This document shows, piece by piece, positions 1,465 to 6,452 of a stretch of DNA of 8,081 nucleotides (its first letter is position 1; every line of letters starts with the position of its first letter). The stretch lies in the IMG/VR virus record IMGVR_UViG_2541047163_000022. One strand, given 5' to 3'. The translations under genes were made by a program, and so were the position numbers. A model generated the notes under the pieces. It ran no database searches. It had not been told where the DNA came from and saw only the letters and a program-made list of their open reading frames with translations. The DNA comes from a virus. Lineage: Duplodnaviria > Heunggongvirae > Uroviricota > Caudoviricetes.

Positions 1465-1883
1465 TTCTCAATCTCTCGATGGCGCAGTGCAGCAGATGCC
1501 AGTTGTTCAAGCTAGCACGCAAATTGTAAACCAGAATGCCAGGAAAAAACAAAACCCGCCGAAGCTGGTTGTGTGCGGTTGCGTTGAAGTCTCCTAGCCA
1601 AAGAGTAGCGGTGACCACTCCCCGCCGATAATCTTAGTTGTTTAATTTCGTAAGCTAACTAGGCTAAAAGCTCTCTGTTGTCTGCCTGTTGTACAATTAA
1701 CAAAATGAACAACGAACTAGATATACCAACGCCAGAATGGTGCAACAAATCCCAAACAACACAGCAATGCAACAATAACATATGTTATTTTCCTCTCACG
1801 GGATTCAGTCCTGAATTCTCATAAAGCTAATCTTTTTTTAAAAACATACTGTTAGATCACATGCACTTTCTTTCTTAACATCG

Positions 1884-1911
1884 TTGACTTCGCATGCGAA
1901 GCGTTTAAAAT
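1884..1911 (+). promoter_or_regulatory. Sigma70-type promoter for the GHKL operon, with an embedded 14-bp perfect palindrome (candidate operator)
   Basis: TTGACT at 1884-1889, 16-nt spacer, TAAAAT at 1906-1911; predicted start about 1918, about 45 nt before the ATG at 1964. The perfect palindrome CTTCGCATGCGAAG at 1888-1901 spans the -35/spacer junction. Confidence 0.45.
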
Positions 1912-1963
1912 CAACAATTTGCACTTAAGGTATTTATTTTCCCAAACACATAGAGAGTAAATT

Positions 1964-3355
1964 ATGACTGAGAACACGACTCCAACAGCAGACTTTAGTC
2001 CTAGTAAAAGATTTTTTGTAAGTATGCTAACTCGAGATATCGACTTAAACGATGCCATACTTGATCTGCTTGATAACTGCGTCGATGGGGCTTTACGTAC
2101 AATAAAAGACACAAAAAAAACTTCAAAACCATATGAAGGATTTTATGCGAAACTTACGATTAATAAAGATGTCTTTATTATAGAAGACAATTGCGGAGGT
2201 ATCCCTAAAAGCTTCCGAGAATATGCTTTTAAAATGGGACGACCCCATCAAAAAGAAGAAGAAAATGAAGGCACCGTTGGCGTCTATGGTATTGGTATGA
2301 AAAGAGCCATTTTTAAAATGGGTAGAGATTGCTCAATACAATCGAATAATCCCGATGGCGCATTCACTGTAGATATAACACCTGATTGGATCGATGGTGA
2401 TGGTTGGAAAATACCGATGCACGAGAGTGACTATGATAACAAAAATCCAACAGGCACAACTATAGAGATAAAAAAACTCCATTCTAATGTGGCACAAAAA
2501 TTTAATGAGAGCACATATCTTACTGATCTCTTTTTACAGATAAAACACTCATTGTCATTTATTATTCAAAAAGGATTTAAAATAGAATTAAATGGAGTTG
2601 TTGTTGAACATAATCCGATTAACATCATAACTGATCATTCTAAAATAGAACCATACATATATAAAGCTAAAATAGACGATGTTGATATCGATTTAGTTGT
2701 TGGCTTCTATAAAAATTTAGAAGATGACAATGATGATGTTTTAGAAAAAAGGAGTTCTGATGATGCTGGATGGACTGTCATTTGCAATGACCGCGTTGTT
2801 CTATATTGTGATAAGACACATCTCACAGGTTGGGGCTTTGCTAATGTACCAAGGTTTCATACCCAATTTATAGCAATTTCTGGGGTTGTTCGCTTTACCA
2901 GTAAAAACCCAGAAAAATTACCAATAACAACAACGAAACGAGGTGTCGATCTTAGTTCTACATTGTACAATGATGTACGAAATAAAATGATTGAAGGGAT
3001 GATGCATTTTATTCGATTCACCAATCAGTGGAAAGGTGAGCATCTTGAAGAAGGGAAAAAATTACTTAAGTCAGCTCAGTCACATGAAGCTCAATCTTTA
3101 TTTGAAATTACCCCACAATCAACTCCAGAAGATAAAAAAAATAACTGGTCCAACCCTAATAGAAACAAAAATGAGTGGCGATATACACCTAAGCTGCCTA
3201 CCCCAGTAAAAAAAAGCTCTACTGTACGAATAATCTTCACCAGAGAGAAAGAAGATGTTAAAATTTTATCTAAATATTTCTTTGGACATGAAGATGCTAG
3301 CGCTTCTGATGTGGGGATGCAATGCTTTGATACGGTGATTGAAGAGGTGAAGTGA
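1964..3355 (+). CDS. GHKL-superfamily (Bergerat-fold) ATPase with N-terminal ATPase domain, MORC/MutL/GyrB-like arrangement; function in this context unknown
   Basis: 463 aa. Motif I D34-LLD-N38-CVDGA (E/DxxxNxxD N-box; codons checked at 2063-2092). Motif II IEDNCGGIP at residues 74-81 (compare GyrB-type DNGRGIP). Motif III G106-VY-G109-I-G111 (GxxGxG). ATG at 1964 preceded by an AGAGAG weak Shine-Dalgarno. Low GC. The stop TGA at 3353-3355 overlaps the next gene's start. Confidence 0.85.
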   Translation: MTENTTPTADFSPSKRFFVSMLTRDIDLNDAILDLLDNCVDGALRTIKDTKKTSKPYEGFYAKLTINKDVFIIEDNCGGIPKSFREYAFKMGRPHQKEEENEGTVGVYGIGMKRAIFKMGRDCSIQSNNPDGAFTVDITPDWIDGDGWKIPMHESDYDNKNPTGTTIEIKKLHSNVAQKFNESTYLTDLFLQIKHSLSFIIQKGFKIELNGVVVEHNPINIITDHSKIEPYIYKAKIDDVDIDLVVGFYKNLEDDNDDVLEKRSSDDAGWTVICNDRVVLYCDKTHLTGWGFANVPRFHTQFIAISGVVRFTSKNPEKLPITTTKRGVDLSSTLYNDVRNKMIEGMMHFIRFTNQWKGEHLEEGKKLLKSAQSHEAQSLFEITPQSTPEDKKNNWSNPNRNKNEWRYTPKLPTPVKKSSTVRIIFTREKEDVKILSKYFFGHEDASASDVGMQCFDTVIEEVK

Positions 3356-4344
3356 TGTCTGGACAATACATTCCCTATCACTTAAGGCATAATAAGTCTA
3401 TTGATAGAGAGATTTTTCTCGAAAGCCTAAACCTCTTAAGCAAAAGACTAAATATTCAAGAATATACATATATAGGTTTTGGTGGTCCGATGCTTGAAGA
3501 TTTTAGAATCATGCATAATCGTATCGCTCTTTCTGATATGATTTCTCTCGAAGAACAAGAGTCTACTCACATCAGACAAAAATATAATTTGCCTTATAAT
3601 TGTATTGATTGTAAGCTAATATCAGCTCATGACTTTATTCTTGATTATAGTTTTTCTAAACCATCAATAACATGGTTAGACTATGCCTCCCCGAAAAAAA
3701 TACAAACGGATCTAGATGATATACACTTACTAAGTACTAAAGTAAGCTCTTTTGATATTTTGAAGGTCACCTTCCCCATAAATCCTAGTTCTTATTACCA
3801 ACGTAGAGTTGGAGAAAGTTTAGATATTTTTAAAGAAGCTTTTATTAATTCATTAAAATCATTGCTTGGGAAAAAGTATCTTGATTTTAATCTTCAGATA
3901 TCAAATGCAGATCTTTCAGATCGTAAGATTAAAGCTCTTTTAATACGAATTATTACAAACGCTTTTAGATCAGCAATAGAACGTGGTCTTTCAGGACGTA
4001 AGGATAAGATTCAGTATTACCCATTATCCTTAAATCAATATAATGATGGCAGTCATACCATGTTGACAATATCAGGTTTTTTCTCCTCAGAACAAGAATA
4101 TATAGAGTTATCTAAGGCATGCGACCTTTCTAACTGGCAATTTTATTCAACAAATTGGGAAGACGTGCAAGAAATAGCAATACCAACACTAACAATTAAA
4201 GAAAAGATAAATTTAGATAGTAAACTGCCTGATAAAGAAGCATATCAGGCAGCCGCTGAAGAGTTCTCTTTAAACGAAAATGAACGGGATAACTATTATA
4301 AATACTATAGGTTATACCCTAACTTCCAAAGAATTATGGTTTAA
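3352..4344 (+). CDS. Hypothetical protein, translationally coupled partner of the GHKL ATPase; no recognisable catalytic motif (candidate effector or specificity subunit)
   Basis: 330-aa ORF. GTG at 3352 and ATG at 3355 both overlap the upstream stop (GTGATG); GAGGTGA Shine-Dalgarno at 3343-3349 favours the ATG at 3355. I found no PD-(D/E)xK, HNH, HEPN or Walker motif by eye. Same low GC as the upstream gene. Confidence 0.7.
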   Translation: MMSGQYIPYHLRHNKSIDREIFLESLNLLSKRLNIQEYTYIGFGGPMLEDFRIMHNRIALSDMISLEEQESTHIRQKYNLPYNCIDCKLISAHDFILDYSFSKPSITWLDYASPKKIQTDLDDIHLLSTKVSSFDILKVTFPINPSSYYQRRVGESLDIFKEAFINSLKSLLGKKYLDFNLQISNADLSDRKIKALLIRIITNAFRSAIERGLSGRKDKIQYYPLSLNQYNDGSHTMLTISGFFSSEQEYIELSKACDLSNWQFYSTNWEDVQEIAIPTLTIKEKINLDSKLPDKEAYQAAAEEFSLNENERDNYYKYYRLYPNFQRIMV

Positions 4345-5463
4345 ATATTCGGGCTGTACTCTTTTATTTAATAAATTGTACAGCCCCTTTAATATATATT
4401 CAGCAACTATTGGTGACACGCTATTTCCTATTTGTCTGAAACTATGCCATTTAGTTACATGAAAGCGAAACCAATCAGGGAAGCCTTGTAATCTAGCAGC
4501 TTCTCTTGGTGTAATCACTCTTGGATGATAAGGGTGGATCGGCCTGACGGCTTGAAAGCTTCCTTTATCTCTAGCGGTTCCCGCCCTTAAAGTCGGGCAA
4601 AAACCATTTGGATCTAATCTTGTAGATCTTGAAATTTTATCAGTTTCCCCAAAAGATAAGGAAGCATAACGCTCTTGGACGATTTTGCTATGTAATGTTC
4701 CGGTACATCCAGATATGATATTATTTTTTAACTTAGCGATCGATTCTGTATCACCAACATTCCGAGGGATCTGCCCCCATAATTTTTCATAAAATCCCCC
4801 TTTTCGATCTTTTTTAATTGTTCGCCAACTCTCAGAGTCTGATTGCCAATTGGCATCGATAATATCTGGTAATCCATACAAAGCATCTTTTACAGTAACC
4901 GGATCAATCATTTTAGGCATAAATACTTCATCTGAAATATCAAGCTTCAATGATTTTTTTACACCGATAAAAAAATATCTAGTTCGAATAGTTGGAGCAC
5001 CATAATCAGATGCTTTTACCTTGATGGGATCAAGAATATCATAATCACCGCTAACCAAATTAAATGCTTTATTTCTAATGCCAGAATATTTCTCTTGCAT
5101 AATACCTGGAACATTTTCTGCCAAAAAGAATAATGGCTGTAATTCTGATACTAAACGGTAGAAATGCATGTAAAGCTGATTCCTGCTATCATCAGGATTC
5201 CCCTTGCCTATTGAACTAAATCCTTGGCACGGAGGACCGCCAATAATACCATCTATGGGCATATCGTTTTTAAAAAAACCCTTAATTATTTCTGCATTTA
5301 GTAAAGAAACATCTTCTTGGACGTGCAAACTTCTTGGAAAATTAATTGCGTGAGTATTAATAGCATGTTGATCAATTTCAACTGCCATTTTAACATCAAA
5401 TCCAGCACGTGCAGCACCAAGACTTAGACCTCCAACGCCAGAAAACAAATCTATTACATTCAT
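4312..5463 (-). CDS. DNA (cytosine-5)-methyltransferase (Dcm/M.HhaI-type C5-MTase), full length, non-permuted
   Basis: 383 aa. Motif I FSGVGG (residues 7-12); motif IV GGPPCQGFS with catalytic Cys79 (TGC, rc of gca at 5227-5229); motif VI FFLAENVPG (E116-N117-V118); motif VIII-like PTIRTRYFFIGV; motif IX REAARLQGFPDWFRF; motif X GNSVSPIVAEYI. Variable region between VIII and IX about 150 aa. ATG at 5463. Confidence 0.92.
   Translation of the reverse strand: MNVIDLFSGVGGLSLGAARAGFDVKMAVEIDQHAINTHAINFPRSLHVQEDVSLLNAEIIKGFFKNDMPIDGIIGGPPCQGFSSIGKGNPDDSRNQLYMHFYRLVSELQPLFFLAENVPGIMQEKYSGIRNKAFNLVSGDYDILDPIKVKASDYGAPTIRTRYFFIGVKKSLKLDISDEVFMPKMIDPVTVKDALYGLPDIIDANWQSDSESWRTIKKDRKGGFYEKLWGQIPRNVGDTESIAKLKNNIISGCTGTLHSKIVQERYASLSFGETDKISRSTRLDPNGFCPTLRAGTARDKGSFQAVRPIHPYHPRVITPREAARLQGFPDWFRFHVTKWHSFRQIGNSVSPIVAEYILKGLYNLLNKRVQPEYLNHNSLEVRV
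4351..4386 (+). terminator. Stem-loop immediately 3' of the GHKL operon (possible terminator or RNA-stability element), embedded in the 3' coding end of the convergent methyltransferase
   Basis: GGGCTGTAC (4351-4359) and GTACAGCCC (4378-4386) form a 9-bp perfect inverted repeat around an 18-nt AT-rich loop, followed by CCCTTTAATATATATT. It begins 7 nt after the TAA at 4342-4344. The loop is long for a canonical intrinsic terminator. Confidence 0.3.
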
Positions 5464-5495
5464 ATAGTTGCAACGTCTCTTATTAGTTTCTATGT

Positions 5496-5525
5496 ATTAT
5501 AACACAACTGTTCTTGATGTTTTAA
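5496..5525 (-). promoter_or_regulatory. Sigma70-type promoter with extended -10 for the methyltransferase
   Basis: - strand reads TTAAAA (5525-5520), 18-nt spacer, TGTTATAAT (5504-5496), i.e. TGn plus a consensus TATAAT. Predicted start about 5489, about 26 nt before the ATG at 5463. Confidence 0.45.
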
Positions 5526-5725
5526 CCCCATAAGATAACCTCATAAAGGCTATCCCTTGAAAATACCGGATCGCATAAATTTAATCTTTCAAAACTACTT
5601 GTCTATTAATCGAGCAATTTAAGGTTGTTTTAGTCATGTCGATACCGACATAGTTAACTAAACCCATTTCATCGTCCAACAAATGGGGGTAATACACTTT
5701 GATTTATAGTCGGGTGGGTTTTTCT

Positions 5726-5761
5726 CTATCTGCCTTTGGTGTTCATGCCCAAGGCAGATAG
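5726..5761. repeat. Near-perfect 12-13 bp inverted repeat (hairpin or protein-binding palindrome) near the right edge of the islet
   Basis: Left arm TATCTGCCTTTGG at 5727-5739, right arm CCAAGGCAGATA at 5749-5760, 9-nt loop, one bulged T, plus a closing C5726-G5761 pair. No U-run follows on either strand, so it is not a canonical intrinsic terminator. Confidence 0.5.
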
Positions 5762-5814
5762 CCTCAAGCACCCGCAGCAATTCTACTTAACTATCCTTTT
5801 CCCGCAAATCGTTT

Positions 5815-5898
5815 TTATCCCCAGCGGCAAATCGAATACACCACCAGCGCCACCGCCATCGCAATTCCTACCGTTGTGAATGCTTCAGGCCAGGTCAT
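5815..5898 (-). CDS. Possible small hydrophobic peptide (27 aa) coupled to the upstream DUF551-like gene; alternatively the remnant of a gene truncated by the islet insertion
   Basis: Hand translation of the - strand gives MTWPEAFTTVGIAMAVALVVYSICRWG then TAA. Its ATG (5898..5896) overlaps the upstream TGA (5897..5895) as ATGA. Backbone-like GC. Too short for the ORF track. Confidence 0.2.
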   Translation of the reverse strand: MTWPEAFTTVGIAMAVALVVYSICRWG

Positions 5899-6452
5899 TG
5901 ATTCACCTCCTGCGGCGGTTCTGGTAGCGACATCCAGTGGGTTGCTTGCCTAAGATCATTACCCGGACTAACTGCTATACCTCCGCGCCGGAACGTGCCT
6001 CCGAGATAGCGTGCGGAATATATTAATGGCCCAGCCTCGCTATCGATATTCATCGAAATAAGCACGTTCTGGCTCTTTTCAGGCATTCGCTCAGTACAGC
6101 TTATCCAGCCATCCAGAGTTATCGGAGATCTGGTTGACGTTTCCGAGATTTCCCGAAAATTGTTGGTTGACGAATTCTTATTTTCCCGAAAGTTTCCGGC
6201 CTGAAGCATGGCGACGCGGCAGGCGTTCCAGCCATCAGCATATGTTTTAGTTACACCGTCGAGATGGCAGGTAAGCAAATCCATTTCATCAGGCACTACC
6301 ATTGCTATCGGCTCTGCTTCCAGTGATGCCAGCGCGATACGAAACACATTAGCCAGCAGGCTGTCTGAAGACTTGTTATCGTGCGCCGAGTCGCTCAGGA
6401 AGCCTGTGATGTATGATTTAATCTCCGCGCGTTCTCTGGTAATAGTGCTCAT
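5895..6452 (-). CDS. Prophage protein with a C-terminal DUF551-like domain (family recalled from the ...HWMSLPEPP C-terminal motif)
   Basis: 185-aa ORF; ATG at 6452 with AAGGAAAA about 8 nt upstream; C-terminus ...ATHWMSLPEPPQEVNQ. Contains an in-frame 33-bp imperfect tandem duplication (peptides NFRENKNSSTN / NFREISETSTR). Confidence 0.7.
   Translation of the reverse strand: MSTITRERAEIKSYITGFLSDSAHDNKSSDSLLANVFRIALASLEAEPIAMVVPDEMDLLTCHLDGVTKTYADGWNACRVAMLQAGNFRENKNSSTNNFREISETSTRSPITLDGWISCTERMPEKSQNVLISMNIDSEAGPLIYSARYLGGTFRRGGIAVSPGNDLRQATHWMSLPEPPQEVNQ
6131..6196. repeat. Two imperfect 33-bp tandem copies inside the DUF551-like coding sequence (in-frame 11-codon duplication)
   Basis: TGGTTGACG occurs at 6131-6139 and 6164-6172; TTTCCCGAAA occurs at 6150-6159 and 6182-6191. 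Both pairs are 32-33 nt apart; roughly 70-75% identity between copies by hand alignment. Confidence 0.5.

Follow-up and report, generated by a model that had tools for sequence, protein, structure and literature searches.

What kind of system is formed when a temperate phage carries an ATPase, a coupled partner, and a cytosine methylase, with no nuclease among them? This question is raised by positions 1884–5525 of an 8,081-nucleotide stretch of Caudoviricetes DNA (IMG/VR record IMGVR_UViG_2541047163_000022, hereafter the window), for which an original prediction, made from the sequence alone, had proposed an undescribed modification-linked defence module composed of a GHKL ATPase, an orphan partner protein, and a convergent C5-cytosine DNA methyltransferase (C5-MTase). 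Domain searches, structure models, and a survey of homologous loci were used to revisit that proposal. With moderate confidence, we favour the reading that the three genes constitute a mobile, methylation-gated cassette, similar in logic to restriction-modification (R-M) systems and acting in exclusion or addiction, that operates without a nuclease.

The ATPase open reading frame (ORF; 463 aa) occupies 1964–3355 on the plus strand, and its partner, here termed MT35, extends on the same strand from 3352 (GTG) or 3355 (ATG) to 4344. Homologues and RefSeq place the partner start at the ATG, yielding a protein of 329 aa (3355–4344) and a junction, TGATG, in which stop and start overlap by 1 nt, which bears out the translational coupling described originally; residue numbers of MT35 given below nevertheless count from the GTG at 3352. 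The C5-MTase gene (here Dcm; 383 aa) lies on the minus strand at 4312–5463, and its 3′ end overlaps that of MT35 by the 33 bp (4312–4344) first reported. RefSeq labels the three products “ATP-binding protein,” “O-methyltransferase,” and “DNA cytosine methyltransferase,” and the database source names for all three are generic only.

All the GHKL motifs claimed for the 463-aa protein, namely D34/N38/D41 (motif I, D34/N38), D75-N-C-G-G-I-P (motif II, D75), and G106/G109/G111 (ATP lid), were found and are invariant in 71 family members, and the Pfam profile HATPase_c_3 matched at 37.5 bits (cut-off 25). The Bergerat fold is followed by an S5-fold transducer with a basic finger, which is the arrangement of MutL, GyrB, Hsp90, and MORC and not that of the kinases; the finger, TTTKR, is invariant in the family, with the transducer lysine lying within T322-TTKRG. 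The S5-domain motif GhXhhpXXRhl, which defines the MORC family (Iyer et al., PMC2292703), corresponds to G269-WTVICNDRVV, with V279 at its end, in the window protein, and the pattern was recovered in 67 of 71 family members as opposed to 5 of 911 unrelated ORFs. An AlphaFold model (predicted local distance difference test, pLDDT, 83) aligned over ∼400 columns with Hsp90/TRAP1, SMCHD1, MORC2/3, and ParE (Foldseek E ∼1e-13), with MORCs, rather than MutL, topoisomerases, or Hsp90, as the nearest structural relatives. By published signature and modelled structure, the protein is a MORC-type GHKL+S5 ATPase, in keeping with the N-terminal GHKL domain of MORC/MutL and not kinase type that had been proposed. 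Beyond the S5 domain, residues ∼330–463 form a helical C-terminal extension in which no conserved acidic or histidine cluster suggesting a nuclease was seen; Pfam identified no HEF_HK or Response_reg_2 domain, and NCBIfam returned chance-level matches only, to DpiB and MzaB (MzaB E = 0.037, 12 bits vs. a cut-off of 850). The family is large (>5000 proteins at E ≤ 0.001), and the best 120 matches are nearly all full-length, with 43–49% identity outside Enterobacterales.

The partner, which had been regarded as an orphan of 330 aa with no assignable motif, turned out to match Pfam family PF20553 (Methyltransf_35) end to end (residues 2–329, 300.4 bits, cut-off 27, E = 2e-89), and its structure model (pLDDT 88.5) shows a Rossmann-like, class I S-adenosylmethionine (SAM)-dependent methyltransferase fold with a glycine-rich motif I, a strand-2 acid, and a motif IV aspartate. 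The domain and structural searches upheld the GHKL fold of the ATPase and ended the orphan status of its partner. Conservation across phyla extends to motif I (G44-G45 and D50), to motif II (E67, the acid that closes strand 2), and to a motif IV-like aspartate, the invariant D110 of W-L-D-Y, and because the cofactor motifs are so conserved, MT35 likely has a working SAM site; an N-terminal basic motif (Y9/R12/N14/K15/R19) is also present. The structural neighbours of MT35 are tRNA and rRNA base methyltransferases, both N- and C-methyltransferases, acting mainly to form N2-methylguanosine and also 5-methylcytosine. PF20553 comprises 2215 representatives at 50% identity, of which the best 150 matches to MT35 are all stand-alone proteins (178–381 aa, nearly all 315–350 aa), and among these 150 no fused extra domain hinting at a function was found. 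Kinship with RlmJ, prompted by the N-terminal Y-x-R-x-N-K, was considered, but the probability was 0.14 when profiles were compared with E. coli RlmJ, and the idea was rejected. Neither the ATPase nor MT35 has a sequence homologue in the PDB, profile searches included; NCBIfam holds no match for MT35, and the PHROGs matches for both proteins are to function-unassigned families only.

Dcm carries, in order, the motifs FSGVGG, PPCQGFS (with the catalytic Cys79), ENV, RxR, QGFPDWF, and GNSV, together with a variable target-recognition region, and matches PF00145 at 208 bits (E = 2.6e-61); by its motif content it is a complete C5-MTase, as was claimed. Its residues 1–367 are identical to PDB chain 3g7u, a record titled “Cytosine-specific methyltransferase” and deposited without a functional description, and its motif IX–X region (residues 308–372) aligns with eukaryotic Dnmt1 (E ∼1e-17). 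Approximately 20 target-recognition positions are conserved in ≥90% of 71 cassette-linked methylases, a hint that these enzymes may recognise a common target or a narrow range of targets; no characterised enzyme is close enough for its specificity to be transferred to Dcm, and M.HaeIII aligns over the catalytic half only. Two PADLOC models, DrmMII and DruM, match Dcm.

The distribution of the trio was assessed by a scan of one genome per species, which yielded at least 585 matching ATPase stretches; the best 80 were fetched with their flanks and annotated by ORF calling, with a crude caller, and hidden Markov models. These 80 loci span Proteobacteria, Cyanobacteria, Firmicutes, Chloroflexi, Acidobacteria, Planctomycetes, and other groups, along with one archaeal (Methanoregulaceae) metagenome-assembled genome (MAG). 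MT35 was found directly downstream of the ATPase in 76 of the 80 (79 of 83 when the window and two earlier loci are added), with a 4-nt overlap in 57 cases, and a C5-MTase occupied the gene slot adjoining the pair in 70 of the 80. The density of C5-MTase genes is 29.5 per 100 kb in this slot and 52-fold lower, at 0.57 per 100 kb, across the remainder of those flanks, and the adjoining methylases belong to the same clade as the window Dcm (median 52% identity). Two layouts predominate: a co-oriented Dcm-ATPase-MT35 operon (55 loci), and the layout of the window, in which ATPase-MT35 is followed by a convergent Dcm (12 loci), the latter being seen in 11 species besides that of the window and having overlapping or abutting 3′ ends (spacing −50 to +31 bp) at 11 of its 12 loci. 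Three of three distant loci seeded from MT35, instead of the ATPase, also contained the trio. Pairwise identities of ATPase and MT35 are strongly correlated (r = 0.92), and the two co-evolve tightly. On these counts, the earlier view of the trio as one unit is upheld, and we regard it as very probable that the three genes function together. Individual loci departed from the simple plan: the ATPase is tandemly duplicated in one (L012), another holds a second ATPase-MT35 pair in the opposite orientation (L058), and in Scytonema hofmannii (L009/L002) the pair (6001–8438 of L002) is inserted among NADH-dehydrogenase/antiporter-type genes with no methylase within 6–8 kb.

To identify companion genes, all adjoining ORFs of the 80 loci were clustered, and the flanking genes were scanned as a pool against Pfam and PADLOC. 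Vsr was recovered in 31 of the 80 loci (PF03852, E = 1.7e-29) and an endonuclease III-like HhH-GPD glycosylase in 8, so that one or the other is present in 39; both are standard repair partners of active cytosine methylases. No recurrent helicase, hidden fourth gene, or nuclease other than Vsr was detected among the neighbours of the 80 loci, and the Pfam scan revealed no nuclease domain in the ATPase or MT35, consistent with the original statement that the plus-strand proteins lack one. In some loci, integrases, Abi_2, HNH_2 proteins, a P4-like satellite, or type I R-M genes occur nearby, and one cassette is embedded in a type I R-M locus. In some loci, a paralogous GHKL protein stands between or beside Dcm and the cassette, among them a 546-aa protein next to Dcm with a C-terminal Ymh-type HEPN domain (L083, 6210–7850; PF09509, E = 7e-34), and, in Serratia, a 608-aa protein whose C-terminal extension has no domain assignment (L006, 8672–10498). 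Several MORC-like arms may therefore share one methylase.

Within the window, the cassette forms a low-G+C island that belongs to a Rac-like lambdoid prophage of Shiga toxin-producing E. coli (STEC) and lies in its nin-like region, in agreement with the low G+C and prophage location reported at the outset. The composition profile gives G+C of 0.31–0.41 over ∼1600–5800 vs. 0.45–0.56 in the flanks, and the island itself (1620–5800) lies between a DUF1367/irsA (NinB-like) gene, as annotated by RefSeq in the identical region, and a sok-like remnant described below; RefSeq places small early-region genes on the side opposite DUF1367, and Dcm is co-oriented with the prophage early genes. Cassettes occupy the same DUF1367-adjoining site in a Yersinia lambdoid prophage (ATPase 64% identity) and in a lambdoid prophage from a food metagenome (83% ATPase identity), and in Enterobacter the cassette lies at one end of a prophage. 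Related Rac-like phages fill the slot next to DUF1367/irsA differently, with an S8 peptidase and an FtsH-like AAA protein in phage vB_EcoS-683R6 (L088, 7014–10407) and with hok/mok and genes annotated “beta” and “CII phage-like protein” in Rac-SA53 (L089, 7161–9509), and this differing cargo identifies the site as a variable moron hotspot. The latter two genes we take to resemble the gop-beta-cII defence system.

The region 1600–5800 is 100% identical to sequences from O157:H7 strain 86-24, PA20, O111 strains, and others; of 5426 complete E. coli genomes, 172 contain it in full. Across those genomes the ATPase-MT35 pair is found in 173 and Dcm in 172, so that co-occurrence holds at this scale as well as in the multi-species survey; in the sole exception, O157:H7 F6294 (L090, 6392–6895), one deletion has removed Dcm along with the C-terminal two-thirds of MT35, leaving the ATPase intact. 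Identical or near-identical copies of the ATPase are also recorded from Salmonella enterica and Klebsiella. Public draft assemblies contain many copies of all three proteins truncated at contig ends, and short-read assemblies of STEC genomes apparently often break within the island.

At the right side of the island, Rfam matched the sok antitoxin RNA below threshold on the minus strand at 5649–5773 (RF01794, 50.2 bits vs. a gathering score of 59, E = 3.9e-10), the scan having returned nothing at gathering thresholds, and 5716–5800 aligns with the sokW region of phage 933W at ∼95% DNA identity. No intact Hok-like ORF was seen near this match, which therefore looks like a decayed hok/sok element marking the island’s right edge; intact hok/mok is present at the corresponding place in Rac-SA53. 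Farther on, RefSeq annotates an 81-aa hypothetical protein (5895–6140) as the only product within a 185-aa ORF (5895–6452, minus strand); four genes further along that record is a frameshifted DUF4014 pseudogene. The outer edges of the analysed region, 1884 and 5525, are set by two sigma-70-like matches, and each transcription unit is preceded by one of them: TTGACT-16-TAAAAT (1884–1911, plus strand), a consensus match at 10/12 positions 52 bp upstream of the ATPase start, and an extended −10 match, TTAAAA-18-TG-TATAAT (5496–5525, minus strand), likewise a consensus match at 10/12, 33 bp upstream of the Dcm start. The region as a whole contains 19 such matches vs. 16.3 expected from shuffled sequence, which is not above chance.

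Under the reading that we favour, Dcm would mark resident DNA and replicating prophage DNA with 5-methylcytosine (5mC); a MORC dimer would close on DNA as an ATP-driven clamp, in the manner of eukaryotic MORCs, and would tell marked from unmarked DNA; and MT35 would be the output subunit, which the clamp holds or licenses and which would most likely carry out SAM-dependent methylation of a nucleic-acid base, either on unmarked invader DNA or on host RNA with a stop to translation. The net effect would be that incoming phage or plasmid DNA is excluded from lysogens, that the host becomes addicted to the cassette, or both. A base-methylating output is preferred because the cofactor site of MT35 is conserved, because its nearest folds are tRNA/rRNA base methyltransferases, and because sister ATPases carry a HEPN RNase instead; this effector step is nonetheless offered tentatively, with low probability. 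At a similarly doubtful level stands the fuller proposal that the MORC clamp reads missing 5mC on incoming DNA and licenses MT35 to poison invader DNA or the RNAs of translation, which would amount to immunity by methylation and not by cleavage and would stand as the ancestral form of the eukaryotic partnership between MORCs and cytosine methylation in silencing. The logic of restriction and self-protection first suggested for the trio is a plausible inference. The Vsr-Dcm-X-Y gene order mirrors that of V-M-R operons, and the integrases, Abi_2, P4-like satellite, and type I R-M locus among the cassette contexts also speak for the favoured reading.

Several observations count against it. The identities of Dcm correlate with those of the ATPase or MT35 at only r ∼0.4, and the Dcm genes of the loci come from no fewer than two sub-clades; compared with r = 0.92 within the pair, the weaker correlation indicates that the ATPase and MT35 are an obligate couple, which the methylase joins as a constant third partner that is exchanged more readily. 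Five cyanobacterial loci (L009, L014, L037, L047, and L061) have an intact pair with no Dcm within 2–8 kb (three more Dcm-less pairs are uninformative, with contig ends close by), and four loci from cyanobacterial MAGs (L036, L048, L073, and L075) have an ATPase followed by a longer Dcm (424–466 aa) and no MT35. There is thus no clear sign that the pair kills cells lacking a linked Dcm, and some loci can do without MT35. The survey counts, moreover, rest on the best 80 of at least 585 ATPase matches and on a crude ORF caller, and cassettes spread by transfer are non-independent observations. Restriction in the usual sense is unavailable, because no nuclease is present; the substrate of MT35 is not settled by its label, since “O-methyltransferase” is a database name with no experimental basis in the literature searched; and that literature reports no phenotype for the cassette.

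The strongest competitor, although rather unlikely, is a cassette that modifies DNA and attacks nothing: both methyltransferases would write on DNA, as a double anti-restriction mark or a regulatory mark, and the MORC protein would act as a loader, a processivity clamp, or a factor for methylation-linked compaction or silencing. Such a role would suit two partners that are both of methyltransferase fold with intact SAM motifs in a locus that lacks a nuclease, the persistence of cyanobacterial pairs without a linked Dcm, and the orientation of Dcm along the phage early genes, which is like that of phage anti-restriction methylases; eukaryotic MORCs, in addition, are known to act in methylation-linked silencing (PMC8277788). 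Solitary methylases, however, need no ATPase, the gene order is V-M-R-like, the cassette is found in R-M, defence, and prophage-cargo contexts, and the HEPN RNase of the sister ATPases is an effector rather than a modifier. Less likely than this is a purely selfish addiction module, in which loss of Dcm methylation exposes cells to damage by the pair (post-segregational killing), so that the prophage or island is stabilised, with no meaningful anti-phage role. R-M systems of the same architecture are known to behave in this way, the only E. coli genome without Dcm lost most of MT35 in the same deletion, and the cassette adjoins the decayed hok/sok-type stabilisation element; but that deletion is a single case in which neutral loss of adjacent genes would look alike, pairs without a linked Dcm exist, and addiction is compatible with a defence role and not exclusive of it.

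Two further explanations fare worse. It is very unlikely that the system serves damage control, with the MutL-like ATPase and MT35 assisting Vsr or a mismatch glycosylase in the repair of T:G mispairs from 5mC deamination, even though Vsr or HhH-GPD accompanies nearly half of the surveyed loci, MutL is known to stimulate Vsr in E. coli, and repair roles have been raised for some family members (PMC2292703). The least probable explanation is that two unrelated modules, an orphan phage methylase and a separate two-gene system, happen to adjoin. The opposite strands, the separate promoter-like sites, and the weak co-variation of Dcm with the pair would be expected in that case; however, related Dcm genes adjoin the pair in 70 of 80 loci and in all three MT35-seeded loci, in two fixed layouts, and the convergent 3′ overlap is conserved. 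The original alternative of an independent orphan methylase is contradicted by this co-occurrence and was rejected.

The methylation-gated cassette, if that is what the trio is, matters in several respects. It is widespread, with the ATPase in at least 585 species representatives, MT35 in ∼2200 clusters at 50% identity, and copies in prophages of O157:H7 and O111 STEC, and yet neither protein has a solved homologue in the PDB or a model in PADLOC-DB v2. If it confers immunity, the known mechanisms would gain one that is nuclease-free and has an effector of methyltransferase fold, and superinfection exclusion in STEC lysogens would be easier to explain. The combination of a true MORC-type ATPase with a C5-MTase whose IX–X region is Dnmt1-like, in a three-gene package tractable in E. 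coli, also offers a simple model for the coupling of a MORC clamp to cytosine methylation, and the solved methylase structure, 3g7u, lowers the barrier to biochemistry.

Compared with known systems, the cassette differs from a type II R-M system in having no cognate endonuclease with a nuclease fold. A search of PADLOC-DB v2.0.0 at E up to 0.1 found zero families for either the ATPase or MT35, and the trio belongs to no PADLOC v2 system, while a full-text literature search for the trio, PF20553, the RefSeq accessions, and 3g7u retrieved no paper. It shares with BREX and DISARM a self-marking DNA methyltransferase and, as we interpret the cassette, ATP-dependent components that would block unmarked DNA without a defined restriction endonuclease; however, those systems have five to eight genes instead of three, the only shared component is the C5-MTase family, and no BREX or DISARM core protein was matched in the PADLOC scan. 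Eukaryotic MORC and SMCHD1 proteins differ from the window ATPase, which is a bacterial mobile-element protein without CW, coiled-coil, or hinge domains and with a different C-terminal helical extension.

Closer parallels are found among prokaryotic GHKL proteins. In Enterobacterales, uncharacterised neighbourhoods of a C5-MTase, a HATPase_c_3-HEF_HK protein, and a Response_reg_2 protein are common (Bellieny-Rabelo et al., 2021, PMC8011034), and these follow the same three-gene theme, in that a paraMORC-like GHKL protein and a small partner tightly linked to it lie downstream of a C5 methylase; their ATPase, however, has extra kinase-like domains and their partner is receiver-like, whereas the cassette has a plain MORC module and a partner of methyltransferase fold. 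The paraMORC-HEPN (Ymh) fusions of R-M neighbourhoods, proposed to act as PrrC/RloC-like RNase guards (Anantharaman et al., PMC3710099), are a sister GHKL family beside the same kind of Dcm, sometimes within a cassette locus (L083), and by this likeness suggest an ATPase that controls an RNA-directed effector; their effector is a fused RNase, whereas that of the cassette would be a separate methyltransferase-like protein. The closest precedent is that of the prokaryotic MORC and paraMORC ATPases linked to cytosine methylases and Vsr, which were predicted as R-M components in 2008 (Iyer, Abhiman and Aravind, PMC2292703). Like those operons, the cassette has a GHKL+S5 ATPase with the MORC signature, a cytosine methylase, often Vsr, and occasional HNH neighbours, and like those families it is sporadic across phyla and located on mobile DNA. 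Either the MORC or the paraMORC1 class of that study, compared here by description, may fit the window ATPase; paraMORC1 proteins are described as extending past S5 at the C-terminus and as having HNH neighbours in some cases, and both traits agree with the window protein. Approximately 70% of the MORC operons described there contain an SF-II helicase and a recognisable nuclease, in contrast to the cassette, which has neither and instead has a fixed partner, MT35, from a family (PF20553) that the text of PMC2292703 does not mention. The system was therefore “undescribed” in part only: the linkage of MORC ATPases, methylases, and Vsr was already predicted in 2008, and what is new is the particular trio with MT35 and its freedom from any nuclease.

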